From: Methylophilaceae bacterium
Lineage (GTDB): Bacteria; Pseudomonadota; Gammaproteobacteria; Burkholderiales; Methylophilaceae
Length of the DNA stretch: 64,000 bases
Direction: 5' to 3'
Assembly (NCBI GenBank): GCA_048595445.1
Contig: JBJPGD010000021.1
Location: 54,196 to 118,195 of the forward strand
The notes below the pieces were generated by a model. It ran no database searches and was not told the DNA's origin. It was given only the letters and a program-made list of their open reading frames with translations. Shown piece after piece: positions 2,195 to 40,919 of the stretch. The position numbers and the translations under genes are program-made. How positions within the stretch are numbered: the first letter of the stretch is position 1; the number at the start of each line of letters is the position of its first letter.

Positions 2195-4060
2195 TTAGAG
2201 TAATGACAATTTTTTTTCAATGGCACGTGTAATCCCTGCACTATCAAGACCACATTCCGCAAGCATAGTTTCATGTACACCATGCTCGATGAAGGTATCA
2301 GGCAAGCCTAGGCATAGCATTGGCTTTGAAAGATTAAGCGCCTGCATCGCCTCCATTACCGCGGAGCCTGCACCACCCATCAAGCTATTTTCTTCCACTG
2401 TGACAATTAAATCATGCGTGTTAGACATTTCTGTAATCAGTTCAACATCTAAGGGTTTGATAAAACGCATGTTTGCTACAGACGCGTTAACTGTATCTGC
2501 AGCCTCTAAGCTTGGTGCAAGCATGCTACCAAAAGCTAAAATAGCTACTTTTTTGTCTTTTTTAATTGATGTTTGCCGAACTATTTCACCTTTGCCGATG
2601 GGTAGGGTCTCTAGTGCAGAAGAGATTGGTGCGCCTGTGCCTGTGCCGCGCGGATAGCGTACTGCTGCAGTGCCTTGGTAGTGGTGACCAGTTGTTAGCA
2701 TCTGTCTACATTCATTTTCATTGCTAGGCGCCATAATGACGATGTTTGGGATGCAACGTAGATAAGATAAATCAAAACTGCCAGCATGAGTAGGGCCATC
2801 TGCCCCGACTAAACCCGCGCGATCTATGGCAAAAAGTACGTTTAAGTTTTGTAATGCAATGTCATGAATCAGTTGGTCGTAAGCCCGTTGTAAAAACGTA
2901 CTGTAAATCGCAATAACAGGTTTTAACCCATCGCAAGCCATACCGCCAGCGAAAGTCAGTGCGTGCTGTTCTGCGATACCAACATCAAAATAACGATCTG
3001 GGTACTTTTGCTCAAAAGCGTTTAAGCCACTCCCATCACACATCGCGGGCGTAATGGCCACTAATTGATTGTCAATATCGGCCATATCGATGAGCCAGTC
3101 TGAAAACACTTGGGTGTAAGTTTTTTGTTCATTACCGGCATGTGCAACACCATTGCAAGGGTCAAATTTGCTGACACCATGATATTTGTTTGGGTCGTCT
3201 TCAGCGGGTTCAAAACCTTTACCTTTTTGCGTCACAATATGTAAAAATTGCATGCCGTTTAGTTCACGTATGTTATGTAACGTATCTAAAAGCGTATCCA
3301 TATTGTGCCCGTCTATTGGCCCAATATAATTAAAGCCAAACTCTTCAAAGAGTGTTCCGCCAGGGGTAACCATGCCTTTAGCATGTTCTTCTGCACGCCT
3401 AGCAAACTCTTTAACTGGCGGCACAATATCCAGCATGTGCTTGCCCGTTTTACGCACACGGTCATATAAACGGCCTGATAGCAGTTTGGCGAGGTAGTTG
3501 TTCAATGCGCCAACATTTTTAGAAATGCTCATGTCATTGTCATTTAAGATAACGAGTAGGTTGGCATTTGTTTCGCCAGCATTATTTAGCGCTTCAAATG
3601 CCATGCCCGCAGTCATGGCGCCATCGCCGATAATCGCAACGCTATGGCGATCAGAGTTTTCTTGTTTTGCAGCAACAGCCATACCTAACGCCGCAGAAAT
3701 AGAAGTGCTAGAGTGACCTGTACCAAACGTATCGTATTCACTTTCAGACTTTCTTGGAAAACCAGCAATGCCATTTTGTTTACGTAGATTGGCCATTTCT
3801 TCACGACGACCCGTTAGGATTTTGTGTGGGTAAGTTTGATGCCCAACATCCCACACAAGTTTATCGTCAGGTGTGTTGAATACATAATGTAAGGCAATGG
3901 TAAGCTCTACAACACCGAGGTTTGATGCTAAATGACCGCCCGTTTTTGAAACGCTATTAATCAAAAAGCTACGTAGTTCAGTAGCCAGTGTTTCTAATTG
4001 ATTACGTTCTAAGTGTCGCAACTCAACAGGGGAGTTAATAGTATGCAATAAGGAGGGCAT
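2195..4060 (-). CDS. dxs: 1-deoxy-D-xylulose-5-phosphate synthase
   Basis: 621 aa. ThDP motif [18 protein letters not shown]. Sits in the canonical xseB-ispA-dxs order. Confidence 0.97.
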
Positions 4061-4082
4061 AGATTAAGTGGTCGCTTCTCTT

Positions 4083-5006
4083 TTAGAAGCTACGCTGCGT
4101 GATGAAGTTGGCTAAGTGCCTCAAAAGGTCTGCTTCAGGGCCATAAAAAGACAAGGCTGCCATTGCATTGGCATGTAATTCATTGGCGAGCTCTTTTGCT
4201 TCATCTAAGCCTAAGATTGTGACATAGGTTGATTTGTTACTTTCAGCATCTTTGCCAGCTGTTTTGCCTAACGTTTCTGTGTCGGCTTCAGTATCTAAAA
4301 TGTCATCGACAACTTGGAAAGCTAGGCCAATTGACTTTGAAAAATGATCAGCTGCAGAAATTTTCTCTTCATTTTGACGGTATGCACTATAAGTGCCCAT
4401 TAACGTTGCCGCACGAATTAATGCACCTGTTTTATGAATATGCATTGTTTCTAGTTCGATCTTTGTTAAGGGAATGCCGACACTATCGATGTCTATCGCC
4501 TGACCCCCTGCCATACCACTGGAACCTGTTGCCAAGGCCAATATATGTAGCATTTTAATTTTTTGCGGGCTTCTAATATTAAGATCTTGAGAAATTAATT
4601 GAAAAGCTAAACTTTGAAGCGAGTCACCAACCAATAGCGCGATGGCATCCCCATATTTTTTATGCGTAGAAGCTTTGCCACGGCGTAAATCATCATCGTC
4701 CATGCACGGCATATCATCATGTACCAGTGAGTATGCGTGGATGAGCTCTACTGCAGCGGCAGCAGAGTCAACTTTTTCAGTATCTGCACCGCAAAACTCG
4801 CCTGCCGCATAAGCGAGCAATGCGCGTACACGTTTGCCACCACCTAGCGTTGCATATCGCATTGCCTCATGTAAGCGGGTTGGCTGGGTGTCTGTAGCTG
4901 GTAGGTGTTGATCTAAAACGCCCTCAATATGCAATTGCATACTGTCAACCCAAGTATTAAACGCTTGCGTTTGATTTTCTACTGTGGCTTCGGTAGCACT
5001 TGGCAT
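4083..5006 (-). CDS. ispA: (2E,6E)-farnesyl diphosphate synthase
   Basis: Two Asp-rich motifs, LVHDDMPCMDDDDLRRG and FQVVDDILD. Confidence 0.93.
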   Translation of the reverse strand: MPSATEATVENQTQAFNTWVDSMQLHIEGVLDQHLPATDTQPTRLHEAMRYATLGGGKRVRALLAYAAGEFCGADTEKVDSAAAAVELIHAYSLVHDDMPCMDDDDLRRGKASTHKKYGDAIALLVGDSLQSLAFQLISQDLNIRSPQKIKMLHILALATGSSGMAGGQAIDIDSVGIPLTKIELETMHIHKTGALIRAATLMGTYSAYRQNEEKISAADHFSKSIGLAFQVVDDILDTEADTETLGKTAGKDAESNKSTYVTILGLDEAKELANELHANAMAALSFYGPEADLLRHLANFITQRSF

Positions 5007-5012
5007 CTAGGT

Positions 5013-5249
5013 TTATTCTTTATCTTGACTAAACGTATTTAGCTGGTTTGTTTCAGAAACAATACGCACTTGCTGCTCGGCTTCAGTGAGTGATTGCTGG
5101 CATATTTTTAAGAGCTCTGCACCACGCTTGTAAGCAGTTAACGATTGCTCTAGTGGAAGATTTTCAGATTCCATTTGATTGACAATCGTTTCCAGCTCGG
5201 CAATAGCAGCTTCGTAGTTAGGCGGTGTTGCTAGGTTTTTATTTGGCAT
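5013..5249 (-). CDS. xseB: exodeoxyribonuclease VII small subunit
   Basis: 78-aa helical protein (FEAAIAELE-type N-terminus) located upstream of ispA-dxs. Confidence 0.9.
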   Translation of the reverse strand: MPNKNLATPPNYEAAIAELETIVNQMESENLPLEQSLTAYKRGAELLKICQQSLTEAEQQVRIVSETNQLNTFSQDKE

Positions 5250-5344
5250 ACTTGGTATTTTGCATGTTAGCGCGTCAAATTAACGTTGTCGTTAGTAGTG
5301 CTATTTTAACAAAAATTTCCAGCTGCTTGCGTGCTAAAAAACAA

Positions 5345-5998
5345 TCATTCAGTAATGGCACATAAAAACTTGCCAATTTCGCTAATCTCATCGATCGAGA
5401 CACTATGTGCGATTGGGTATTCATGCCATTGCACTTGATATTGCTCTGCTTGTAATTGTGCTAGCGAAACATGGCAGGTTTCCATGCTAATCACTTCATC
5501 ATGCGTACCGTGTGCCATCATGATTGGGGTGTGTTGGTTGTCTGGAGATTTTTCAGCTGAAAATGCTGATTTAAGTGGCAGATAAGTGGAGAGTGCTACC
5601 ACACCTGCTAAGGTTTTTTGATAGCGCAGCGCAGTATGTAAGGCAATCGCACCGCCTTGAGAAAAGCCTGCCAGTACGATTTTATCGCTAGGAATACCTT
5701 TAGCAAGCTCATTGCCTATTAAACGTTCAATATAAGCCTGAGATTCACGAATACTTGCTTCATCCTCAAGACTATCAAGCGTACGCCCCAAAACATCATA
5801 CCAAGCGCGCATTTCGACGCCATTGTTAATGGTGACTTTTCGGTAAGGCGCATGGGGTAGAATGAAGCGAAGGTGCGGTAGTTTTAACATTTCCACCACA
5901 GGAACGAAGTCATTACCATCTGCACCTAAGCCATGTAGCCAGATAACGCTGCCAGAAGGGTCGATGATATTTCCTATTTCAATTGGACTGTCGGCCAT
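5345..5998 (-). CDS. alpha/beta-hydrolase carboxylesterase/phospholipase
   Basis: WLHGLGADGNDF and nucleophile elbow GFSQGG. The ATG at 5998 gives about 217 aa; the ORF-track start at 6022 is a TTG. Confidence 0.8.
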   Translation of the reverse strand: MADSPIEIGNIIDPSGSVIWLHGLGADGNDFVPVVEMLKLPHLRFILPHAPYRKVTINNGVEMRAWYDVLGRTLDSLEDEASIRESQAYIERLIGNELAKGIPSDKIVLAGFSQGGAIALHTALRYQKTLAGVVALSTYLPLKSAFSAEKSPDNQHTPIMMAHGTHDEVISMETCHVSLAQLQAEQYQVQWHEYPIAHSVSIDEISEIGKFLCAITE

Positions 5999-6296
5999 CT
6001 CGTGTCTTTTTAATTGATTCAATCATGACGTTATTTTAGGTGATAATGAATCAATTTAATCAAAATTGTAATGATAAATTAACAAAGCCAATTGGCAGCC
6101 TGTGCAAGATGACGAAACCACCATATTAATTGCTTTAATTTAATGGTGGTTAACTTATACATTCACCATCTGAATATTGGCCATCTCAAATGTAGGTAGG
6201 GATGATAAAATGTTGATTGAAAGTGTTACAAACTACGCAACAGCTTACTGTCTCAGTAAGTATTAGGACTTTAACTTTTAAAAAGATAATTAATTC

Positions 6297-7373
6297 ATGG
6301 AACAACCAGTTGATGCTAACAAGCCCTTGATGGCGGGAAGAAAGCTGTTGGCGACTTTGTCGCCAATGAATAAGCTATCCACTAGCCGATTGGATGAATT
6401 AGCAGAAGTCGCCATTGTTGAGGAGGTTAGTAAAGATTTAGATCCAACGCGCCTAAGCGACCAAGTGCTGGAATCCCTTTACTTGGTTAAAGGTGATTTA
6501 GGTATTCGCTATGAAAATGGTAAAAAAATTGTATTACGTGGCGGTACGCCAGCGGCAAAACATCCTATCGCTTCAGAGCGCCTTAAGATTAAAGATACCA
6601 TCGCCATTTCACCGATTGAGATCACCCGTATCGATTTGGACTTGTTAGATATTATGCTGACATGGGATCAGATTTCTGGCGGCGCTCAAGCATCCAAAGA
6701 AAACGTGCCGCAAAGTGGTTTTAAAATAGATGGTGAACGCTTCAAAGCCTTTAAGCTTAAAAATAGCGTATTCGATAAAATTCCAGCGGCTAATATAGAG
6801 CGTTTATTTAGTTGCTTAACCAGTGTGGATGTTAAAGCAGGACAAACAATTATTACTCAAGGGCAAGAAGGAGATTATTACTACCTCATTCACCAGGGCA
6901 CCGCTGTAGTAAGCCGCATTATAGATGTCAGCCAGCCGCCAGTCTTGTTGGCTGAGATTACAGATAATGATACCTTTGGCGAAGAAGCCTTAGCATCAGA
7001 TACGAAACGTAATGCAACCATTAAAATGAAAACAGATGGCCAGTTGCTACGTTTGAAAAAAGAAGATTTTATTGAACTGTTGAAAACACCAGTGGTGAAT
7101 ATGGTGAATATGGAACAAGCAAAACAGCGTGTAGAAAATGGCGCAGTATGGATGGATGTTCGCTTTGAATCGGAATTTGAATATCACCATATTAATGGTG
7201 CGATTAATGCACCAATCCATGAGCTGCGTAATAAAGTAGATTGGCTAGATCAAGATAAAGAATACATTGTTTATTGCCAAACAGGGCGACGCAGCTCAGC
7301 CGCCGCGTTTATATTAGCGCAGTTTGGAATAAGTGCAGTTGTATTAAAGGGTGGCACCAGATCAAGCAGTTAG
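6297..7373 (+). CDS. cyclic-nucleotide-binding domain / rhodanese fusion protein
   Basis: cNMP-binding signature FGEEALASDTKRNATIKM. C-terminal rhodanese with active-site loop YCQTGRRS. Confidence 0.75.
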   Translation: MEQPVDANKPLMAGRKLLATLSPMNKLSTSRLDELAEVAIVEEVSKDLDPTRLSDQVLESLYLVKGDLGIRYENGKKIVLRGGTPAAKHPIASERLKIKDTIAISPIEITRIDLDLLDIMLTWDQISGGAQASKENVPQSGFKIDGERFKAFKLKNSVFDKIPAANIERLFSCLTSVDVKAGQTIITQGQEGDYYYLIHQGTAVVSRIIDVSQPPVLLAEITDNDTFGEEALASDTKRNATIKMKTDGQLLRLKKEDFIELLKTPVVNMVNMEQAKQRVENGAVWMDVRFESEFEYHHINGAINAPIHELRNKVDWLDQDKEYIVYCQTGRRSSAAAFILAQFGISAVVLKGGTRSSS

Positions 7374-7394: not shown

Positions 7395-8891
7395 TTAGTT
7401 TCGTTGTGGGTTTTCAACACGCCTTTTCTGCATCCAAATACGTGGGATAATATTGCTTGAGGGTAGCGAGAAGGCTCTTTCATTTACTCTTATATGTCTT
7501 TGATTACTGGTTAAACCACGGTTCAATTCAGGAAATGTAGACCATACCATTGCGACTAATACGACAATAGCAAAAACAGGTCTAAATCTTAGTTTGTTTT
7601 TTGGTGCTATATTTCTAAGCTTATACCAATCACCTTCTGTATATTGACCAATCATTAACCCAATGACAGTAAACATTAGCACTTGGCTGATTGGCATAAC
7701 AATAACGCCTTCTACCAATGAGTATGCGCCATTGGCAATGATGGTAAAGAATAAGATGATTGAGAAGTTTGAATTTAATTTAGATGTGCCTTGCAGTTTA
7801 TTCTTATTAAAGCGTTTAAACCAATAGCGGAAGCTCAAAGCCACAATTGTGAGCATAATAAAAGTGGCAGGTAAGCCAAATTCAGCAGCAAGTTGAAGGA
7901 TGCTGTTATGAGGGTGTGTTCCAAATTGGTTGTACCAATAATAGTGCATAGGACCTACACCTAGTAATGGGAAGTTATCTATCATGACAAGCGATACTTT
8001 CCATAAATCAATACGATCCGAAGTCATTGTTCTAAACACAGTGCTTGTAGTGATGGCGGTAGATTGCATTGATGCAGCTGATGCTGCGATCCAAACTGGG
8101 ATCATTTTGAACAAAACATAATATGCAGTTAGCCCTGTTACTGCGCTAATTAGTTGAATGCGTAAAAATGGCCAAGCGGCATTTTTGTAGATAATAGCAG
8201 TTGTAACCATAGCAACCAACCAGCCTAATACAACGCCGCGAGATGCTGCGTAATATAGCAATACCCACCAGCTGGTAAGTGCAAAATAAAGCCACATGCG
8301 CGTTTTTTGCTTAAGGTTAAAAGCTAGTAGTGGCAAGCAAATAAGCCCTAAACTCCAGAGCTGGTATTGTTGGAATAAACGGACGTTAGTAAATCCGTCA
8401 AGCGGGTCCGGCCAAGCCAATGGTTTTTTGACCACCATAGCTGTGATATAGCCTACATAAAATGACAACATATATAGCAGAATGCTTGCCCATAGTGCAT
8501 AGATTAGTCGCCTTATGAATTGATCTTTATCCGCCCGGTAACAGTGGGCCACAAATAAAGCAAGATAACACAATGCCGCAAATACACAGGTTTCTATAAT
8601 TGCTTGCCTGGGAGATATTGCGTTAAAAGATGAAGTTATTGCCAGTACTAAGACCGCATAAAGCCCGATGCGGATATTTTTATTGATGGACAATAAATGT
8701 TGTGGGTTGGTGCTAGCATTACTTGCATTGATTAGTACTAAACTGAGTAAAATTAATTGTAATACACGTTTGCAGTCATGAAATTCAATATACTGTATAA
8801 AATGTATACTAGGCGATAATACAATTGTTGTTACGAAAGCTATAAAAATTAAGTGCTTCGTAGCAGATTGGAAAGTTAAAGGTTTTATCAT
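7395..8891 (-). CDS. O-antigen ligase (Wzy_C) family membrane protein, candidate pilin O-oligosaccharyltransferase (TfpO/PglL-like)
   Basis: 498 aa with at least 10 TM helices and a periplasmic loop carrying a GTHPHNS-type ligase motif. Lies directly downstream of pilA. Confidence 0.65.
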   Translation of the reverse strand: MIKPLTFQSATKHLIFIAFVTTIVLSPSIHFIQYIEFHDCKRVLQLILLSLVLINASNASTNPQHLLSINKNIRIGLYAVLVLAITSSFNAISPRQAIIETCVFAALCYLALFVAHCYRADKDQFIRRLIYALWASILLYMLSFYVGYITAMVVKKPLAWPDPLDGFTNVRLFQQYQLWSLGLICLPLLAFNLKQKTRMWLYFALTSWWVLLYYAASRGVVLGWLVAMVTTAIIYKNAAWPFLRIQLISAVTGLTAYYVLFKMIPVWIAASAASMQSTAITTSTVFRTMTSDRIDLWKVSLVMIDNFPLLGVGPMHYYWYNQFGTHPHNSILQLAAEFGLPATFIMLTIVALSFRYWFKRFNKNKLQGTSKLNSNFSIILFFTIIANGAYSLVEGVIVMPISQVLMFTVIGLMIGQYTEGDWYKLRNIAPKNKLRFRPVFAIVVLVAMVWSTFPELNRGLTSNQRHIRVNERAFSLPSSNIIPRIWMQKRRVENPQRN

Positions 8892-9064: not shown

Positions 9065-9406
9065 TTATAGCGAACAACTACCGTCAGCGTAATCACAAGT
9101 TACCGTACCTGTACCACGAGCTGCATTGCTGAATGTACCTGTACCAGTAGATAAAGTTGTTGGTAGAGTGCCAGTATCGCAAGCACTTAGTGCACTAGTT
9201 GACAATAGGCTAGTGTCGTTATTTGCATTTGCTGCAGCCATGCCACGAGCGATTGCAGTTCCTTCAGCTAAGCAAGCTGTGTCTGCAGATTTCTCTGTAT
9301 AGCTTGCATATTGTGGTAATGCTACCGCAGCCAGAATACCGATAATCGCAATAACGATCATCAACTCGATTAAGGTAAAACCTTGTTGTACTTTTTTCAT
9401 GTTCAT
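9065..9406 (-). CDS. pilA: type IVa major pilin
   Basis: Class III leader [33 protein letters not shown]. Four Cys, including a C-terminal loop [15 protein letters not shown] lies 6-7 nt before the ATG at 9406. Confidence 0.9.
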
Positions 9407-9497
9407 TATAATTTCCTTTATTAAAAATAATTTAGTATTACTAGTTAAGTTAAAACACACTAGAAGTAGTTAATACCAGTGCTTGCATAGTAATTAG

Positions 9498-9512
9498 CAA
9501 TGGCTGTGCCAA
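9498..9512 (-). promoter_or_regulatory. sigma-54 (-24/-12) promoter of pilA
   Basis: The minus strand reads TGGCACagccaTTGC, an exact TGGCAC-N5-TTGC match, about 90 nt upstream of the pilA ATG. Confidence 0.75.
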
Positions 9513-9642: not shown

Positions 9643-9780
9643 ACATAGTGTGACATTTTCTGTCACTGTTTGCCAATTTACTTTACCAAAATTTCCACCA
9701 TGGTTTTTTTACTACTGTTTTTTTACTTGCGCTGGCTTTTTCATCTGAAGCATTGGAAGTTGCGCTTGCCTCCGAGCTAG

Positions 9781-16508: not shown

Positions 16509-18287
16509 TCACTCATCTAAATGAGGAGCAATTTTAAGCACTTCTTCAATCGTTGTTGTGCCTGCAGCAACTTTTTCTAAACCGTTTAACATCATTGGTT
16601 GCATGCCTTCTTGATAAGCCAGCTTCTTAATTTCAGCTAACTCCGTGTCGGGCTTAATAAGCTTACGCAGTTTAGGAGAGATAGTCAGCATTTCATAAAT
16701 GCCGCTACGGCCTTTAAAACCGGTGTTTCGGCATTCTAAACAACCAACAGCTTTCTTGGCGGTTGTCGGCTTAGCTGCTTTAAATGGGCTTGTAGCTGCA
16801 TTCCACTCTGCATCAGAGATTTCAGTTGCGGTTTTACAGGCAGGGCACAGTGTGCGTACTAACCGTTGCCCCATGATGCCCAGCACAGTTGAATGGATTA
16901 AGTAAGAAGCAACGCCTAAATCCAATAAGCGCGTTACTGCGGACGGCGCATCATTCGTATGGAGTGTAGAAAGCACTAAATGCCCAGTAAGTGCAGCTTG
17001 GATCGCCATATCAGCAGTTTCCATATCACGTATTTCACCAATCATGATGATGTCAGGGTCTTGCCGCATCAGTGTGCGAATGCCTTGTGAAAAGTCAAGG
17101 CCAATGTTGGATGTGACTTGCATTTGATTGAATGCAGGTTCAATCATCTCGATTGGGTCTTCAACGGTACTCACATTGACTTCATCTGTCGCAAGCTGCT
17201 TAAGCGTAGAGTATAAGGTGGTCGTTTTACCTGAGCCTGTAGGGCCGGTGACCAAAATAATGCCGTTGGGGTGCTTAGTCCACTCTTTCCATAGCACGGC
17301 TTGTTTTTTTGAGAAGCCAAGCTTCACAAAGTCCTGCACAATGATATCAGGTGTAAACACACGCATGACAAGCTTTTCACCAAAGGCGGTTGGCATGGTG
17401 GATAAACGTAATTCAATCTCGGCACCGTCAGTATTCACTGTTTTAATACGACCGTCTTGGGGACGTCTTTTTTCAACCATATCCATACGACCAAGCAATT
17501 TAATTCTGCTGGTAATCGCATTCATGATGTTGGATGGTAATTGGTAGACCTGGTGTAATACGCCGTCAATTCTAAAGCGCATGACCCCCATGCCTCGACG
17601 TGGCTCTAAATGAATGTCACTAGCACGTTGTTCAAATGCGTAATTAAACAACCAGTCCACAATGTTGACGACATGCTGTTCGTTAGCGTCTAAATTTTTA
17701 TCTTTTCCTAGCTCAACAAGCTGTTCGAAATTTTGAACACCAACGACCTGTCCTGCTTTTGATAAGTTTGCTTGATTGATAGAAGAGGCTAAGTTGTAGA
17801 TTTCAGGAAGGTAGCGGCTTATTTCAAGCGGGTTAGCAACCACTAATTTAATGCTCTTGTCTAGAATACGTTCTAAATCGGGAATCCATTCCTTGTGGTA
17901 TGGGTCAGCTGTAGCAACAACGGCCTCACCACCTTTGATGGAAATCGGCATTATCTTTAATCGCTGAGCATATGCTTTTGAGACCATCTGTGATGCTGCG
18001 GTGAAATCTAACTTCAGTGGGTCAATATGATAAAAATCTAGGCCTGCTTCTTTGGCTAACCAGCGTGAAAGAAAGTCAGCATTTAAGACTTTATTAGGTG
18101 ACTGCAAGTCCTTCCATTTTTTTTCGCCAATAATGATAATCGGGTGTAGATTAGAGCTGTCTAACTTGCGGTCTTTATAGAGTTTTTCGGCTTTTTCTTT
18201 TTCAATTTTCCCGGCATTGACTAGCATGCGCAGAAACTCGCCTAGGTTAAGCTTATTTTTATTACTTACATTGCTTTGTTTTGCCAT
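16509..18287 (-). CDS. pilB: GspE/PilB-family secretion ATPase (probable type IV pilus extension ATPase)
   Basis: Walker A GPTGSGKTT. Tetracysteine CPAC...CLEC. N-terminal GSPII_E_N-like region. Adjacent to nadC, as in Pseudomonas. Confidence 0.75.
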   Translation of the reverse strand: MAKQSNVSNKNKLNLGEFLRMLVNAGKIEKEKAEKLYKDRKLDSSNLHPIIIIGEKKWKDLQSPNKVLNADFLSRWLAKEAGLDFYHIDPLKLDFTAASQMVSKAYAQRLKIMPISIKGGEAVVATADPYHKEWIPDLERILDKSIKLVVANPLEISRYLPEIYNLASSINQANLSKAGQVVGVQNFEQLVELGKDKNLDANEQHVVNIVDWLFNYAFEQRASDIHLEPRRGMGVMRFRIDGVLHQVYQLPSNIMNAITSRIKLLGRMDMVEKRRPQDGRIKTVNTDGAEIELRLSTMPTAFGEKLVMRVFTPDIIVQDFVKLGFSKKQAVLWKEWTKHPNGIILVTGPTGSGKTTTLYSTLKQLATDEVNVSTVEDPIEMIEPAFNQMQVTSNIGLDFSQGIRTLMRQDPDIIMIGEIRDMETADMAIQAALTGHLVLSTLHTNDAPSAVTRLLDLGVASYLIHSTVLGIMGQRLVRTLCPACKTATEISDAEWNAATSPFKAAKPTTAKKAVGCLECRNTGFKGRSGIYEMLTISPKLRKLIKPDTELAEIKKLAYQEGMQPMMLNGLEKVAAGTTTIEEVLKIAPHLDE

Positions 18288-26661: not shown

Positions 26662-27705
26662 GTGGATATTTCAGATTTGCTTGCCTTTTCAGTAAAAAAT
26701 AAAGCTTCAGACTTGCATCTGTCTGCTGGTCTGCCACCGATGATTCGTGTGCATGGAGATGTCCGCAAAATTAATGTGCCGACTATGGACCATACGCAAG
26801 TACATGACATGGTGTATGACATTATGAATGATGGGCAGCGCAAGGTATATGAAGAAACGTTAGAATGCGATTTCTCATTTGAGATCCCTAATCTTGCGCG
26901 TTTTCGTGTGAATGCATTTAATCATAACCGTGGCTCAGGTGCCGTTTTCCGTACCATTCCATCCAAAATTTTGACGTTAGAAGAACTTAATTGCCCAGCA
27001 ATTTTTAAAGATATTGCAGATACGCCACGCGGAATTGTGTTAGTAACCGGACCAACAGGTTCTGGTAAGTCAACAACGCTAGCAGCAATGGTTGATTATG
27101 TTAATGAAAATGAGATGGGGCATATCTTAACAGTAGAAGATCCGATTGAATTTGTACATATATCGAAAAAATCACTCATTAACCAGCGTGAAGTTGGGCC
27201 CCATACCTTATCATTCCAGAATGCTTTGCGCTCAGCATTACGTGAAGACCCTGATGTCATTCTAGTGGGTGAGATGCGAGATCTCGAAACGATTCGCTTA
27301 GCGCTTAGCGCCGCTGAAACAGGTCATTTGGTTTTTGGCACATTGCATACGAGTTCCGCAGCAAAAACAGTGGATCGTATTATTGACGTATTTCCTGCGG
27401 CAGAAAAAGAAATGGTGCGCTCAATGCTATCTGAATCCTTACGTGCGGTGATTTCACAAACACTATGTAAGACAAAAGATGAGCAAGGTCGCTGTGCAGC
27501 CCATGAAATTATGATTGGTACACCAGCTATTCGTAATTTGATACGAGAAAATAAAGTCGCACAAATGTATTCAGCCATTCAAACAGGGCAAAATATTGGC
27601 ATGCAGACCTTAGATCAAAACTTGCAAGATTTGGTTAGAAGAAACGTCATATCTGTAGCAGAAGCGCGTGGTAAAGCTGCAAATAAAGACTCTATTAATG
27701 GTTAA
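26662..27705 (+). CDS. pilT: type IV pilus twitching-motility (retraction) ATPase PilT
   Basis: MDISDLLAFSVKNKASDLHLSAG N-terminus. Walker A GPTGSGKST. AIRNLIRE motif. GTG start. Confidence 0.95.
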   Translation: MDISDLLAFSVKNKASDLHLSAGLPPMIRVHGDVRKINVPTMDHTQVHDMVYDIMNDGQRKVYEETLECDFSFEIPNLARFRVNAFNHNRGSGAVFRTIPSKILTLEELNCPAIFKDIADTPRGIVLVTGPTGSGKSTTLAAMVDYVNENEMGHILTVEDPIEFVHISKKSLINQREVGPHTLSFQNALRSALREDPDVILVGEMRDLETIRLALSAAETGHLVFGTLHTSSAAKTVDRIIDVFPAAEKEMVRSMLSESLRAVISQTLCKTKDEQGRCAAHEIMIGTPAIRNLIRENKVAQMYSAIQTGQNIGMQTLDQNLQDLVRRNVISVAEARGKAANKDSING

Positions 27706-27721: not shown

Positions 27722-28858
27722 ATGGAACAAGGTCAAGCTGAGAAGTTTGTATTTGATTTGCTTAGAATGATGATAAGCAAAAAAGCATCAGATTTGTTTA
27801 TCACAGCGGGTTTCCCACCTGCGATGAAAGTAGACGGGAAAATGACACCTGTCAACTCTCAAGCGTTGTCACCACAGCAAGCGCGTGAAATATCTCGCTC
27901 GATTATGAATGATAAGCAAGCTGCAGAGTTTGAAGAAAGTAACGAATGTAATTTTGCTATTGGCCTTCCGAATGTAGCACGATTTCGTGTGAATGCATTT
28001 GTACAACGTGGATCTGTAGGATTGGTATTTAGGACAATTACTTCTAAAATTCCGGATATGGATGAACTCGGTTTGCCAGCAGTGCTTAAAGATGTTGCGA
28101 TGACTAAACGCGGCTTGGTTATATTAGTTGGTGGCACAGGTTCTGGTAAGTCAACTACTTTGGCGGCAATGGTCGGTTACCGTAATAAAAATAGCTACGG
28201 CCATATTATTACGATTGAAGACCCCATTGAGTTTGTGCATGACCATCAGAATTGTGTGATTACACAGCGTGAAGTCGGTGTTGATACGGATAGCTGGCAT
28301 ATTGCACTTAAGAATACTTTGCGACAAGCACCAGATGTTATTCTGATTGGTGAAATACGTGATAGAGAGACAATGGATTATGCCGTAGCCTTTGCTGAAA
28401 CGGGTCATTTATGCATGTCTACGCTGCATGCTAATAGTACTAACCAAGCATTAGATAGGATCATTAATTTCTTCCCTGAGGAACGTCGGCATCAATTGTT
28501 GATGGACTTGTCTTTAAATGTTCGTGCGTTTATTTCGCAGCGACTTGTTCCTAAGATTGATGGTATTGGTCGTGTGGCCGCAATTGAAGTTATGCTGAAC
28601 TCACCTTTGATCGCAGATTTAATTTTCAAAGGTGATGTGCATGAAATTAAATCAATTATTAGCAAGTCGAGAGAGATTGGTATGCAGACGTTTGACCAAG
28701 CATTGTTTGATTTGTATGAAGATGGAAAGGTTAGCTACGAAGATGCCTTGCGCAATGCAGATTCTGTGAATGATTTAAGGCTAAAATTCAAGTTGGAAGG
28801 TAAGGCATCTAAAGATAAAGATATCTCTTCTGGCCTGGATCATATGGGGATGGTTTAA
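27722..28858 (+). CDS. pilU: PilT/PilU-family type IVa pilus ATPase PilU
   Basis: Paralogue immediately downstream of pilT. Walker A GGTGSGKST. Confidence 0.9.
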   Translation: MEQGQAEKFVFDLLRMMISKKASDLFITAGFPPAMKVDGKMTPVNSQALSPQQAREISRSIMNDKQAAEFEESNECNFAIGLPNVARFRVNAFVQRGSVGLVFRTITSKIPDMDELGLPAVLKDVAMTKRGLVILVGGTGSGKSTTLAAMVGYRNKNSYGHIITIEDPIEFVHDHQNCVITQREVGVDTDSWHIALKNTLRQAPDVILIGEIRDRETMDYAVAFAETGHLCMSTLHANSTNQALDRIINFFPEERRHQLLMDLSLNVRAFISQRLVPKIDGIGRVAAIEVMLNSPLIADLIFKGDVHEIKSIISKSREIGMQTFDQALFDLYEDGKVSYEDALRNADSVNDLRLKFKLEGKASKDKDISSGLDHMGMV

Positions 28859-35434: not shown

Positions 35435-36031
35435 TTAACTTTCACTTTCCCACTGCTGTAAGCGTTCTACATAGCGTGCAATTTGATCTATTTCTAAATT
35501 CACCTGGCTACTGACATTGAGTTTACCAAGCGTTGTTTTTTCGATTGTGTGCGGAATGATGTTGACGGTAAATACATCTTTTTCAATCGTGTTAACCGTT
35601 AAACTGACGCCATTGATGCAAATAGAGCCTTTGCGTGCAATGTATTTTGAAATGGCATGCGGTGTTTTAATCGCGAGTAGCCAGCAATCATTAACCGGCT
35701 CGAGTCTCTCTACTAGCCCTACACCATCTATGTGACCACTAACTAGGTGGCCACCTAAGCTGTCATTTAGGCATAGTGCTTTTTCTAAATTGACATGGCT
35801 TTTAGTATCTAGCCCTACCGTTACGCTTAATGTCTCTTTAGAAACATTCGCTTCAAAGTGTGTTGCGCTAAGTTGAGTGGCCGTTAAGCAAACACCATTC
35901 ACAGCAATGCTATCGCCTTCTTTCAGGTCGGTTAGCTGTAAACCTGCTGCATTAATGCTGATTTTAATATCACCATTAGTAGATTGAATGGATTCAATTT
36001 GACCTAAGGCTTGAATAATTCCTGTAAACAT
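35435..36031 (-). CDS. ribE: riboflavin synthase
   Basis: [11 protein letters not shown]-terminus. Two lumazine-binding repeats. 198 aa. Confidence 0.92.
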
Positions 36032-36104
36032 ACCGCAATTTTAACAGTAGTAAGCGTTTTTTATTTAAGTATTCAATATTAGAAAGAGAGGCTTATTTAA
36101 AAGT

Positions 36105-36119
36105 TGGCATGGAGATTGC
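36105..36119 (+). promoter_or_regulatory. sigma-54 (-24/-12) promoter upstream of the first paralogue
   Basis: TGGCATggagaTTGC matches TGGCAC-N5-TTGC in 14 of 15 fixed/spacing positions. It lies 42 nt before the ATG at 36161. Confidence 0.65.
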
Positions 36120-36160
36120 TGCTTATGACTTAAGCAAGATGATTTAAAAGGAAAAGTAAG

Positions 36161-37813
36161 ATGTTAGCTAACGTATTAGAAACTGCAAGAAAAACAATCA
36201 AACATGGCGTTTTTACTCAAGACATTGAGTGGTTAGATACGCTGTCTGGGATGACAGAATTAGAATCGTTAATTACGATTAAAGATGAGTTGTCCAAAAT
36301 TGATTTTCTTGACCTTAAGCGTTTGGAAAGCAAGGTAGATTTTGTGTTAGAGGTTGACAAATCTACTTATAAAAAAGTTAAACATATAACACATAACTAT
36401 TTGATTGAATTAAAAAATAATAAAGAGTTAAAAAAAGACATTCAAGTTGTAGCATATGAATATCATAGACAGTTGTATGCAGCTTATTCGCAAATCCTAG
36501 ATGCCTATCAGGCGCAGGAAAAAGTAAAACTTAGTGCAAAGAAAACAAATTTACTATTAGCGCGTTATTTAAATGCAACATTCATGATGTCAAAATGGCG
36601 TTATTTTGACGATCAGTCTGCCCCTATAGGTGTTTGGGAAAATGTGCACAAAGTCATCAAGCTTGCCGAAGAATTGGCAATGATCAACCAACATATATTT
36701 TTATATGATTTCCAGATTAAAGAGACAAGTATTGCGACTATTTTAAAACGCGGGTTTATGGTTGATACCTTACATAAAGGAAATTATAGCCAATTAGAAA
36801 TCGAGTTGACTGATCGCATATTAAAAATATGGGCGTCAAACCCATTGATCGTCAATACTTATAAAGCGGATCGTTATCATTTCTTTATACAGTTAGAAGG
36901 TGATAAAGGGCCGGACAGAATGCGGATGAAAGAAAAGTTCAGCAACTGTCGTTACTGGAAGACCACACGGCTAATCGATTTAATGGAGGCATACTTATGT
37001 GCTGTCGATATGCAAAAACCGTTAAGAGAATTTGGCTTAGAAAAAATAGCGCCTAGTTCTGTTGTCTTAAAATTATTTAAGAAGTTAAGAGTGGATTGGT
37101 GTGTAGAAGGGTATTCACGTCAACGCAGAGTCGAAGAAAGAAATCAAAAGAACAGCTTATTAAATGTTAGTCATGGCCTCGATTCTATTCATCAGCGCTT
37201 AATGCGTATACAAGTGCAGCAGCAAAAAGAAGCCGCGAAAGACGCAGGATTTACTTTTGAGTTAAATGCGACGCAACAAAATAACGATGCACCACCAGCT
37301 CAGCCTGCAAGAGTGCTAGGGTCTGAAAACTGGTGGATGGTAGATGAAAGCAAAAGTGGCTTTGCCGTTGATTTTGGTAAAGAACCTGCAGATTGGGTTG
37401 AAACTGGCGGCTTGATCGGTTATAGCGAAATGGGCTATCAGAAAACTTTTAATATTGCAGAAATTAGAAGTGTCAGAAAACTGCCCAATGGCGCATACAG
37501 AGCCGGGTTTAAAAAAATCTCTCACAATGTTATAGCGGTGAAAGTTAGTCGTGTAGAAAAAACATCGATTGCGCAACCAGTATCAGGTTTTTATGTAGAC
37601 GAAGGCGAAGAGAGCATCAACTATTCTGATGAATTCACAGGGTTGCTGGTTGACGATGATGGCAATAATTTCTCTAAGCTACTGATGCCAAGAAAACGAT
37701 TTAAGCGTGGTGGTACCTTTAATGTCAATATTGATGGAGAAAATCAATTTATAACGGCAGGGAAAGTCATTACAAAACATAATGACTGGATACTTTTTGA
37801 CACGCTTATTTAG
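36161..37813 (+). CDS. uncharacterised 550-aa protein, paralogue A, with PilZ-like QRRxxxR...DxSxxG signature
   Basis: Long ORF with AAAGGAAAAG upstream of the ATG. Collinear with the next ORF. QRRVEER at residues 321-327 and DESKSG at 395-400. Confidence 0.7.
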   Translation: MLANVLETARKTIKHGVFTQDIEWLDTLSGMTELESLITIKDELSKIDFLDLKRLESKVDFVLEVDKSTYKKVKHITHNYLIELKNNKELKKDIQVVAYEYHRQLYAAYSQILDAYQAQEKVKLSAKKTNLLLARYLNATFMMSKWRYFDDQSAPIGVWENVHKVIKLAEELAMINQHIFLYDFQIKETSIATILKRGFMVDTLHKGNYSQLEIELTDRILKIWASNPLIVNTYKADRYHFFIQLEGDKGPDRMRMKEKFSNCRYWKTTRLIDLMEAYLCAVDMQKPLREFGLEKIAPSSVVLKLFKKLRVDWCVEGYSRQRRVEERNQKNSLLNVSHGLDSIHQRLMRIQVQQQKEAAKDAGFTFELNATQQNNDAPPAQPARVLGSENWWMVDESKSGFAVDFGKEPADWVETGGLIGYSEMGYQKTFNIAEIRSVRKLPNGAYRAGFKKISHNVIAVKVSRVEKTSIAQPVSGFYVDEGEESINYSDEFTGLLVDDDGNNFSKLLMPRKRFKRGGTFNVNIDGENQFITAGKVITKHNDWILFDTLI

Positions 37814-37912
37814 CATTGTTACGCCATTCTACTTTTTTGTAAGAACCACTTCTAGGTGGTGCGAAATTCACAATAAGCGTCATATATCATTAAATGAGAA
37901 AGCTTCTTCACC

Positions 37913-39571
37913 ATGTTAAATAATGTAATGCATCAGGTTAATCAAGTATTCAGCCATCAGGCTTTACAACCCGAGGTTAATTGGGATGATGATTTTTCTG
38001 GAATGACAGAATTAGAGGCTTTGATTAAAGTTAAAGATAGCTTGTCAACAATTAACTTGCTGCAGAAGGCGAGTCTAAAAGATAACGTGCAATATATCTT
38101 AGACCTAGATGAAAAGACCTACCGAAAGCTTCAGAATATTACACATAACTATTTAACTTCTGTGAAAGGCAATAAAAAGCTAAGAACGATGATTGAGGTG
38201 GCGGTATTTGAATACCTTAGGCAGCTGTATGCAGTATATACATGGGTTGTTTCAGATTGCCAGTATCAGAATCAATTAAATTTTGATGTGGAAAGAATCA
38301 ACCTTATTTTGGCGCGTTATTTAAACACTATATTCATGATGTCGAAATGGAATTACTTTGATGGCCGACCTGCTCCTCTCGGTACATGGAGCAATGTGCA
38401 TAGTGCCATTAAAGAAGCTGAAAATTTATCAGTCGTGAATAAGAATTTATTTTTATACAACTTTCAAAAGAAAGAGATCAGTATTGCAACAATATTAGAG
38501 CGAGGTTTCATGCTCGATACCTTGCAAAAAGAAAGCTACACCCCGCTACAATTAGAACTTGCCGATAGAGTATTAAAGACTTGGTCATCTAACCCAGTCA
38601 TATCAAAAGAGTTTCACAAAGATGAGTATCAGTTTTTTATTCATTTAGATGAAGATAACAAGCCGCAAAGACTACGCAATGCAAAGCAACACCCTAACTT
38701 TCGTTATTGGAAAACAGCTGCTACTGTTGATTTGATTGAAACATACTTATGTGCCGTTGATACAAGAAAATCGCTAGATGAATTTAATCTCGTCACAATG
38801 GCAGCAACTGAAGATATCGTAAATTTATTTAAAAAGTTACGTGTAGATTGGTGTGTAAAAGGATATAAGCGTCAGCGTAGAAAAGAACAAAGGGTTGCTA
38901 AACAAAATGTGATTCGAGTAAGTTTAGGTATTGATCAAATTTGTGCGATGAATAAAAAAAGTGTGCAAATTAATACTAATCTAACAGTTTCAGAAACACA
39001 GCATTACGATTCAAGCTTAACGTTAGCGAAAGGGAATACGCTGAAACAGCCCAGTGGCAATCAATTTGATCTGTCTGGGTTGCAGAGATGGACGATGTTA
39101 GAAGAAAGTGATAGTGGTTTCTCTGTGGAATTAGATGAGGGTATGAGCATTCTAATTCGGGCTGGCTCTTTGGTTGGTTATAACGCAATTGGAAATAAGA
39201 GCAGAATAGCGGTTGCCGAAATTAAAAATGTTAAGAAAAATAAGAATGGCACCTATAGGGTGGGGTTAAATAAAGTAGCGAGCAGCGTTATAGCGACAAA
39301 ACTTTCGCGCGTGCAAAAAAATTATAAACAAGAAGCCACCCCAGATTATTACGTTGACGACGGAGAAGGCAATTTAACCTTTTCCACCGAGTTTGCAGGG
39401 TTGTTAGTTAATGATGATATTGCAGGAAAACTTAGAGTAATAACTCCGCAAATGCAATACAAGCGTGCACAACGCTATCAAGTCAATATGTATGGTGAAA
39501 ATCATGTGGTACTCGCAGGAGAAGTGGTTAAGCGCAACCGTGATTGGGTGTGCTTTGAAATAATCGCTTAA
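37913..39571 (+). CDS. uncharacterised 552-aa protein, paralogue B
   Basis: About 42% identical to paralogue A (42 of the first 100 residues by hand count). QRRKEQR at residues 321-327 and EESDSG at 397-402. Confidence 0.7.
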   Translation: MLNNVMHQVNQVFSHQALQPEVNWDDDFSGMTELEALIKVKDSLSTINLLQKASLKDNVQYILDLDEKTYRKLQNITHNYLTSVKGNKKLRTMIEVAVFEYLRQLYAVYTWVVSDCQYQNQLNFDVERINLILARYLNTIFMMSKWNYFDGRPAPLGTWSNVHSAIKEAENLSVVNKNLFLYNFQKKEISIATILERGFMLDTLQKESYTPLQLELADRVLKTWSSNPVISKEFHKDEYQFFIHLDEDNKPQRLRNAKQHPNFRYWKTAATVDLIETYLCAVDTRKSLDEFNLVTMAATEDIVNLFKKLRVDWCVKGYKRQRRKEQRVAKQNVIRVSLGIDQICAMNKKSVQINTNLTVSETQHYDSSLTLAKGNTLKQPSGNQFDLSGLQRWTMLEESDSGFSVELDEGMSILIRAGSLVGYNAIGNKSRIAVAEIKNVKKNKNGTYRVGLNKVASSVIATKLSRVQKNYKQEATPDYYVDDGEGNLTFSTEFAGLLVNDDIAGKLRVITPQMQYKRAQRYQVNMYGENHVVLAGEVVKRNRDWVCFEIIA

Positions 39572-39635: not shown

Positions 39636-40919
39636 ATGTCATTTTTCAGCAATTTTTTCTCAAAACTCCAGCTGCCTTATGAGCTGTTTGTCGGCTTCCG
39701 CTATACCCGCGCAAAACGTAAAAATCACTTTATTTCCTTTATCTCATTAACCAGTATGGTCGGTATTGCGCTAGGCGTTGCCGCATTAATCATTGTACTT
39801 TCTGTGATGAATGGCTTTCAATCAGAATTGCGCAGCCGTATTCTTGGTGTTGCTTCTCATATTGAAATTACTGAAAACAGTAACCGACTCGAAAACTGGC
39901 AAGACCTAGCCAATCAAGTTGATGCACTGCCTAACACGCAAGCAAATGCGCCATATGTAATGGCGCAAGGTATGCTGAGTTATGGTCAGGCTGTGCAAGG
40001 TGCATTAGTCCGGGGTATCTTACCAAGTGAAGAGGATAAAGTTGCTGATTTAGGTAAAAACATGCAGGTTGGACAACTTGCCGACTTGCGGGCAGGTGAG
40101 TTTAATATCATCCTCGGTGCAGATTTGGCGCGCTCATTAGGTGTCAATATTGGTGAAAAACTAGTATTGATGGCCCCGCAAGGTCAATTTACGCCTACTG
40201 GTGTTGTGCCACGTATTAAACAATTTAATGTAGTCGGCTTGTTTCAAATCGGCATGTATGAATATGATGCAGGTTTGGCGCTTATTCACATGAGTGATGC
40301 GGCTAAGCTCTACCGTATGGGTGATAAAGTTTCAGGGCTGCGTTTGAAAATTAATGACTTGTTTGATGCGCCAGCCATGACGGCCGAGTTAGGCAAAACG
40401 CTTACGCCATTAGGTGCGTACTATATTACCGATTGGACACAGCAACACGCGAACTTTTTTAAAGCGGTGCAGCTAGAAAAGCGCGTGATGTTTATTATCC
40501 TTACCTTAATTGTGGCAGTCGCAGCGTTTAATATTGTTTCAACCCTAGTGATGGCGGTAACCGATAAGCGGGCAGATATTGCCATTATGCGTACGCTAGG
40601 TGCTAGCCCACGTAGCATTATGCAAATTTTCATTGTTCAAGGAGCACTCATCGGGATTATAGGCACATTTTTCGGCGCACTTTTCGGGGTTGTGATCGCA
40701 CTGAATATTGACACCATCATCCCATTTATTGAGAACTTATTCCAAGTGCAGTTCCTAGCAAAAGATGTGTATTATATTAGCGAGTTACCTTCAAAATTAG
40801 AGTTGAATGATGCGGTTACAGTGATTCTTACTTCTATTGTATTAAGCTTATTTGCCACGCTGTACCCAAGCTATAAAGCCTCTCAAATCAACCCAGCGGA
40901 GGCTTTGCGTTATGAGTAG
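39636..40919 (+). CDS. lolC: lipoprotein-releasing ABC transporter permease
   Basis: 427 aa. [18 protein letters not shown]-terminus, large periplasmic loop and C-terminal FtsX domain. Confidence 0.9.

Follow-up and report, generated by a model that had tools for sequence, protein, structure and literature searches.

A 64,000-nucleotide stretch of the genome of a Methylophilaceae bacterium (GenBank assembly GCA_048595445.1, contig JBJPGD010000021.1, positions 54,196 to 118,195 of the forward strand; hereafter the window) carries two adjacent genes, referred to here as genes A and B, whose products we consider likely to be paralogous receptors of c-di-GMP (cyclic diguanosine monophosphate) belonging to the FimW family, derived from an old duplication and transcribed with RpoN (sigma-54), gene B being read through from gene A. 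FimW is the product of PA4958 in Pseudomonas aeruginosa, where it has been published as a PilZ-type c-di-GMP effector that dimerises and goes to the cell poles as c-di-GMP rises on surface contact, and that stimulates type IV pilus assembly; how it acts downstream of c-di-GMP binding is, according to the literature, not known. The genes are arranged as follows, the domain identities of the ribE and lolC neighbours being taken from syntenic loci:

35435..36031, minus strand: ribE-type gene (Lum_binding, riboflavin synthase alpha-chain), divergent from gene A
36161..37813, plus strand: gene A, fimW-like, 550 aa (open reading frame (ORF) list; precomputed PF27104 FimW_N)
37814..37912, plus strand: gap between genes A and B, 99 nt
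37913..39571, plus strand: gene B, fimW-like paralogue, 552 aa (ORF list; precomputed PF27104)
39636..40919, plus strand: lolC-type gene, flanking gene B

An earlier note on this DNA, made from the sequence, had described two collinear paralogues of about 550 residues between ribE and lolC that align without indels through about residue 330. The ORF coordinates agree with this description, as does a BLASTP alignment in which A and B share 43% identity from end to end (551 columns, E 1e-175) with two gaps, the first of them only near residue 349; every one of the conserved N-terminal blocks quoted in the note is found in both proteins. Its description of the family as unknown has to be given up: a precomputed match to the Pfam model FimW_N (PF27104) is recorded on A, on B and on every listed homologue, close or distant, and several orthologues bear the Joint Genome Institute (JGI) name "cyclic-di-GMP-binding protein". 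Judged by these matches, A and B are a duplicated pair from a family that is already known and has its own Pfam models. The failure to place them from sequence is explained by local scans against Pfam-A (in a copy without the PF27104 model), NCBIfam and PADLOC, none of which gave anything significant for either protein; weak local matches to DUF2536, a transposase N-terminal domain and BspB were set aside as noise. A FimW_C match (PF27125) is not recorded among the precomputed Pfam matches of A, B or their close homologues, and is recorded, often weakly, in distant members whose full length can be aligned to the family profile. The exhaustive profile search and the cluster look-ups gave no names, or no useful ones, for members; no Pseudomonas sequence came from the genome-collection scan, the profile searches or the cluster look-ups, the named members being betaproteobacterial only.

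The case for c-di-GMP binding is made by the C-terminal part of the two proteins, in which the PilZ signature is split into two widely separated halves:

37124..37141, plus strand: RRVEER (R322, R323 and R327), first PilZ half-motif of A, in the loop that leads into barrel strand 1 of the AlphaFold2 (AF2) model
37178..37318, plus strand: PilZ-barrel insert of A, residues 340-386, from AF2 secondary structure and the predicted local distance difference test (pLDDT)
37343..37360, plus strand: DESKSG (D395, E396, S397 and G400), second PilZ half-motif of A, at the turn between strands 2 and 3
38876-38893 and 39101-39118, plus strand: RRKEQR and EESDSG, the two half-motifs of B

QRRVEER in A and QRRKEQR in B both occupy residues 321-327, while DESKSG lies at residues 395-400 of A and EESDSG at residues 397-402 of B. 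The split signature proposed in the earlier note is borne out, since RRxxxR near residue 320 and [D/E]xSxxG near residue 395 are both kept in 166 of 166 full-length close homologues, namely those from the homologue searches with A and with B, and the predicted fold matches PilZ structures. The half-motifs are indeed further apart than the usual 20-30 residues, with a spacing of 46-84 (median 75) among these homologues and of 73-75 in the window proteins, owing to a helix-loop insert. R320, R322, R323, R327, E396, S397 and G400 are invariant in an alignment of 77 sequences, and among distant representatives, whose mean column identity is 28%, the corresponding two arginines (R323 and R327), serine (S411) and glycine (G414) each reach a conservation of at least 90%. 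The first position of the second half-motif is D or E, not D or N. An AF2 model of A (pLDDT 80, predicted template modelling score (pTM) 0.72) has the following layout, by residue:

1-312: helical N-domain
322-327: arginine motif, in a loop
328-338: strand 1 of the barrel
340-362: helix of the insert
363-386: loop modelled with low confidence
388-468: other strands of the barrel, of which 388-396 and 400-404 flank the E396-S397-x-x-G400 turn
485-549: further beta-rich part

In the model, the strands between residues 328 and 468 make up a six-stranded PilZ-type barrel that has the signature at its N-terminal edge. When the model was compared with the PDB using Foldseek, the best matches were mostly PilZ/c-di-GMP structures, with probabilities of 0.9-1.0. 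Three entries fall below E 0.001, all of them cellulose synthase BcsA and headed by 4p00 with c-di-GMP bound (E 1.3e-4); PA0012 with c-di-GMP is matched at a probability of 1.0 and a target TM-score of 0.75, and further matches include the PilZ domain of YcgR, MrkH, MotI, Alg44, MapZ and the helix-inserted XCC6012 (3rqa, 3ph1). With PilZ matches dominating in this manner, the model supports the reading of the C-terminal part as a split PilZ barrel with a c-di-GMP signature.

On another reading, the barrel has given up c-di-GMP binding and is a PilZ-like adaptor, as in P. aeruginosa PilZ or Xanthomonas XCC6012, so that the proteins would act via protein-protein contacts only. A large barrel insert is also present in the non-binding XCC6012, whose structures 3rqa and 3ph1 are among the fold matches, and the Pfam PilZ model finds no match in A or B. 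Non-binding PilZ proteins have, however, lost RxxxR and/or DxSxxG, whereas here both half-motifs are invariant in the 77-sequence alignment, present throughout the close homologues and for the most part retained in distant members. The best fold matches are, moreover, c-di-GMP-bound structures, and FimW is described as c-di-GMP-binding in published work. We regard a barrel that has lost its ligand as improbable.

Preceding this putative receptor barrel is the domain that defines the family:

36161..37105, plus strand: FimW_N helical domain of A, residues 1-315 (AF2 domain model)

When the N-domain was modelled by itself from a deeper alignment, AF2 gave a pLDDT of 88.5 and a pTM of 0.88. A Foldseek search of this model against the PDB gave nothing significant, the best E-value being 0.76 and the TM-scores, obtained with 14-3-3-like helical proteins, ~0.3 or lower. 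As modelled, FimW_N is an orphan fold, without a solved structural relative. One distant homologue, P0363 from Thiobacter aerophilum, carries the UniRef name "Zorya protein ZorC EH domain-containing protein"; taken at face value, this name would make the N-domain a ZorC-type EH-signature DNA-binding domain and the two proteins defence-related or DNA-binding. We give this idea next to no credence and consider it effectively refuted, as PADLOC, Pfam, the PDB sequence search and the fold comparison are all without a match: PADLOC does not match A or B, local Pfam finds no EH_Signature in P0363 and its relatives, the family profiles match no PDB chain by sequence, and no ZorAB-like neighbours were seen, the neighbours being ribE and lolC. 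The structure of ZorC has been solved, and no ZorC is found among the 50 PDB matches listed for the N-domain, its presence in that copy of the PDB being unconfirmed. The name of P0363 was probably propagated in error or reflects a very weak annotation.

The second pillar of our interpretation is the promoter of gene A:

36105-36120, plus strand: sigma-54 (-24/-12) element TGGCATGGAGATTGCT, upstream of gene A

The earlier note had reported a near-consensus -24/-12 element 42 nt before the first ATG. The GC dinucleotide of TGGCATGGAGATTGCT does lie at this distance from the ATG of gene A (36161), and the element conforms to TGGCAC-N5-TTGC, with GG at -24, GC at -12 and exact spacing. Transcription is predicted to start near 36131, and the ATG is preceded at ~9 nt by an AGGA ribosome-binding site. 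In the 64 kb of the window, two exact matches to TGGCAYN5TTGCW are found where shuffling leads one to expect 0.41. A scan with one genome per species gave 64 related loci, all from Methylophilaceae (Methylotenera, Methylophilus and metagenome-assembled genomes (MAGs)), with the ribE-lolC position conserved. In 63 of the 63 loci evaluated, TGG[C/T]A[C/T]-N5-TTGC precedes the start of the first FimW gene by 55-80 nt, the few apparent exceptions being explained by a wrongly placed start codon or by the variants TTGCG and TTGCC. In the 63 upstream regions anchored on the element, the sole high-information block is aaagTTGGcAcGcAt.TTGCAAA, while the flanks have diverged. Because the element is kept at every evaluated locus while its flanks diverged, a functional sigma-54 promoter at gene A is strongly supported by the comparison. 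One very divergent family member from a Methylophilaceae MAG (L067, 6001-7584; 27% identity to A) has no -24/-12 element upstream.

Alternatively, the match could be due to chance and the genes could use an ordinary sigma-70 promoter. With one mismatch allowed, seven sites are found in the window where 9.8 are expected, so that matches to the relaxed pattern do not exceed chance. Chance would not, however, be expected to hold the element at the same position in all 63 loci amid diverged flanks, and of the 80 matches to the sigma-54 pattern in 1.67 Mb of related loci (both strands), the large majority fall at the fimW position; in addition, no sigma-70-like site was found in the gap upstream of gene A. 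A chance match is thus very unlikely. As to the regulators, no rpoN or activator gene is present among the ~20 window ORFs scanned, the other window ORFs not having been scanned. In P. aeruginosa, the fimW promoter is not among the targets bound by the sigma-54 activator FleQ, and we came across no publication that connects FimW with RpoN. Two further conserved blocks lie nearby: ATTTTAACAG, which immediately precedes the divergent ribE start codon, is shared by most loci, and AAGTATTCAATA, located 30-45 nt upstream of the -24 element, is kept within the clade to which the window belongs. Together (window 36032-36104) they may represent a ribE promoter or leader, or a binding site.

For gene B, the earlier note had stated that the 99-nt gap contains no -24/-12 element. 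This holds in so far as no consensus element is present; what was missed is a decayed remnant, TGGTGCGAAATTCACA, at 37857-37872, which lies at -56 from the ATG of gene B and in which TCAC stands in place of TTGC at -12, so that its -12 GC is gone. Seven other loci (L004, L006, L007, L008, L009, L012 and L021) have an intact -24/-12 element at -55 to -58 of the second gene, while L005 and L025, the nearest relatives, have only 26-33 nt between A and B, which is operon-like. Judged from these gaps, the window is intermediate between pairs with an intact second promoter and pairs with a short gap. No terminator-like site is found in the gap, nor any significant RNA structure (fold z-score -0.88). 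The decayed promoter, the lack of a terminator and the short gaps of the nearest relatives together indicate that gene B is probably co-transcribed with gene A.

A tandem pair, with an A-like gene followed by a B-like gene, occurs in L004-L009, L012, L021 and L025, and all other loci have a single copy at the same position between ribE and lolC. In a neighbour-joining tree rooted on Sulfuricella-type relatives, the A clade is sister to the B clade with mirrored internal topology, and both stand beside the single-copy clade of Methylotenera and Methylophilus. Because the two clades are sisters and mirror each other, the tree speaks for a single old duplication, placed in the ancestor of one sub-lineage of Methylophilaceae. 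Of 203 columns conserved in the single-copy genes, the A clade keeps 135 and the B clade 116, and mean identity within the clades is 72% for A and 56% for B; by these measures A is closer to the ancestral single-copy gene and B is the faster-evolving copy. The binding-motif residues are kept in both A and B despite the faster evolution of B.

For the wider family, the exhaustive profile search returned 733 clusters at E up to 1e-3, and the distant members that carry names, reached with a profile built from distant members, come from Sulfuricella, Sulfurimicrobium, Sulfurirhabdus, Sulfuriferula, Thiobacter and Burkholderiales. Thiobacter (L068, 906-4957) and Sulfurirhabdus (L069, 6056-12110) have two to three FimW paralogues around an Abhydrolase_2 gene; since these loci show it too, clustering of paralogues appears to be recurrent in the FimW family. 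In other bacteria (L070-L074), shorter FimW_N proteins of 478-511 aa with a motif spacing of 44-54 are encoded between xseB-ispA-dxs and genes for an esterase, a CHASE2 cyclase, a class II phosphodiesterase and a cyclic nucleotide monophosphate (cNMP)-binding/rhodanese protein. At 2195..7373 of the window, the order of dxs, ispA and the cNMP/rhodanese gene is the same, but no FimW gene lies there.

At the locus of the pair, G+C content (window 36000-39000) is 0.34-0.39, as compared to 0.42-0.47 in the adjacent rib/pyr genes. A foreign origin, which this lower G+C might suggest, was rejected because synteny is kept across Methylophilaceae. An Rfam scan of the locus gave no match, and an antisense ORF of 86 aa inside gene A (37316..37576) was treated as spurious.

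Taken together with what is published on P. aeruginosa FimW, these features allow a mechanism to be proposed. Transcription would start at the sigma-54 promoter 40 nt upstream of gene A and, as the promoter is of the sigma-54 type, would need RpoN together with an enhancer-binding activator; gene B, its own -12 element lost, would be read through from gene A. In the proteins, the RRxxxR loop and the [D/E]xSxxG turn of the PilZ-type barrel would clamp c-di-GMP, while FimW_N (~315 residues) may serve as a protein-interaction or localisation module. By analogy to the P. aeruginosa protein, a rise in c-di-GMP would lead to dimerisation and polar recruitment and thereby stimulate assembly of type IV pili. 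The window holds the following pilus-related features:

7395..8891, minus strand: Wzy_C/O-antigen-ligase-like membrane protein, immediately downstream of pilA
9065..9460: type IV pilin gene pilA (N_methyl motif)
9496-9511, minus strand: second exact sigma-54 element, TGGCACAGCCATTGCT, upstream of pilA
16509..18287, minus strand: PilB/MshE-type assembly ATPase with MshEN domain
26662..27705 and 27722..28858, plus strand: two T2SSE ATPases side by side, with sizes typical of pilT/pilU, at a distance of 7-9 kb upstream from the fimW pair

That pilA uses the same promoter class, as noted earlier, is confirmed by TGGCACAGCCATTGCT, and the hint of a shared surface or motility regulon has gained substance, the family being that of a pilus effector and pilA, pilB, pilT and pilU all being present in the window. 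The pilT/pilU block is syntenic in Methylotenera. A 12-mer, TAAAAGTTGGCA, which extends the -24 flank, is common to the promoters of pilA (9496-9511, minus strand) and fimW-A (36093-36120, plus strand). The MshEN domain is a known c-di-GMP-binding module, and its presence in PilB means that there may be two c-di-GMP inputs to pilus extension. A ligase-like gene downstream of pilA is an arrangement typical of pilin glycosylation (TfpO/PilO-type). Since the window encodes pilA with a sigma-54 promoter, a PilB with MshEN, pilT and pilU, a pilus-related role for the pair is plausible.

The upstream regions of pilA and fimW resemble each other less in other respects. A perfect palindrome, GTGACAGAAAATGTCAC, at ~9650-9666 (minus strand), ~140 nt upstream of the -24/-12 element of pilA, is a candidate PilR-type enhancer site. 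No counterpart was found upstream of fimW, which suggests different activators for the two genes, and when the two upstream regions were compared for a shared activator site, only the -24 flank and a doubtful 11-mer emerged. The latter, AACAGTAGTAA, occurs upstream of both fimW-A (36043-36053) and pilA (~9709-9719, minus strand) and may be a chance occurrence in AT-rich DNA.

The proteins could also be c-di-GMP receptors that control flagella, exopolysaccharide or competence in Methylophilaceae, pilus control being specific to Pseudomonas. Such a role would sit well with synteny to ribE, lolCD and comEC and not to pil genes, with the esterase, cyclase, phosphodiesterase or FliL genes beside distant members, and with the different activator suggested by the palindrome found at pilA only. 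We assign it a small but appreciable weight, given that the sole characterised member of the family acts on type IV pili, that the window contains a full pilus motor gene set and that its pilin gene shares both the promoter class and the extended -24 flank. Within the preferred reading of A and B as pilus-related FimW receptors, one may go further and picture the two paralogues, which have mirrored trees suggestive of co-evolution and each keep an intact c-di-GMP site, as an obligate heterodimer or as a pair with divided labour (opposite poles or different c-di-GMP thresholds) which, with an RpoN-dependent pilA, would form a sigma-54 surface-attachment regulon of small-genome aquatic methylotrophs, FimW_N contacting the pilus machinery. 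This extended picture is doubtful, though conceivable, and the heterodimer in particular is speculative.

A number of observations weigh against the interpretation of A and B as sigma-54-controlled FimW receptors acting on pili. Their membership in the family rests on the precomputed Pfam label. The assignment of the barrel to PilZ is based on the motifs and the predicted fold, without profile similarity: PF07238 is not matched at E up to 10 by A and B or at E up to 1 by eight relatives, a comparison of the family profile with MapZ using hhalign gave no match (probability 0.1; the MapZ sequence was checked as exact against 5xly), and searches of PDB sequences with a single sequence and two family profiles found no relative. 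The 45-60-residue insert is the likely cause of these missing PF07238 and profile matches. At the promoter, no enhancer-binding site emerged from the comparison of the 63 anchored upstream regions. The immediate neighbours ribE, lolCD and comEC are housekeeping genes and uninformative with respect to pili, and no FimX-like neighbour is present at any locus examined, near or distant, fimW being encoded next to fimX in P. aeruginosa. Finally, P. aeruginosa fimW mutants have shown only mild twitching phenotypes in some studies.

The analysis replaces an unknown family by a concrete assignment to FimW-type c-di-GMP receptors, without overturning current understanding. In the literature we did not find the deeply conserved sigma-54 promoter of the Methylophilaceae FimW genes, the old tandem duplication in one lineage with ligand-site motifs kept in both copies, the helix-loop insert that hides the FimW PilZ barrel from standard PilZ models, or the lack of a solved structural relative for FimW_N; the decayed second promoter before gene B is a further, modestly new point. 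As the downstream mechanism of FimW is unsolved, a well-folded orphan N-domain and a natural pair of paralogues are possibly useful material.

Compared to canonical PilZ domains (PF07238; MapZ/PA4608, PA0012, YcgR, Alg44 and BcsA), the predicted barrel of the window proteins has RRxxxR ahead of strand 1 and [D/N/E]xSxxG where strand 2 turns into strand 3, as they do, and it superposes on c-di-GMP-bound PilZ structures; the window sequence W-x-V-x-D-E-S-x-x-G-F-x-V resembles W-E-V-L-L-H-D-V-S-L-H-G-I-L-V of MapZ. In contrast to these domains, the half-motifs are 46-84 instead of about 20-30 residues apart, separated by a helix-plus-loop insert, the domain is missed by the Pfam PilZ model and by hhalign, and residues 485-549 add a beta-rich part behind the barrel. 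A helix-interrupted PilZ barrel is found in XCC6012 of Xanthomonas campestris (3ph1/3rqa; Foldseek probability up to 0.91). Its inserted helices mediate oligomerisation, which fits the c-di-GMP-driven dimerisation reported for FimW; XCC6012 lacks the c-di-GMP signature and is not known to bind the ligand, whereas the window proteins retain all signature residues and have a 315-residue N-terminal domain in addition.

The fimW promoter is of the same class, with the same spacing, as sigma-54/PilR-dependent pilA promoters, and the window's own pilA shares the TAAAAGTTGGCA flank, but no upstream activator site common to both was found, and the pilA palindrome is absent upstream of fimW. Unlike P. 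aeruginosa fimW, the window genes form a tandem pair and not a single gene, do not lie beside fimX, have no FimW_C match recorded on their products and possess a conserved sigma-54 promoter, for which we found no counterpart reported for FimW. What A and B have in common with FimW (PA4958) is the N-terminal domain family, as assigned by precomputed Pfam matches, a C-terminal PilZ-type c-di-GMP signature, and the nature of a soluble protein encoded in a genome with type IV pili.

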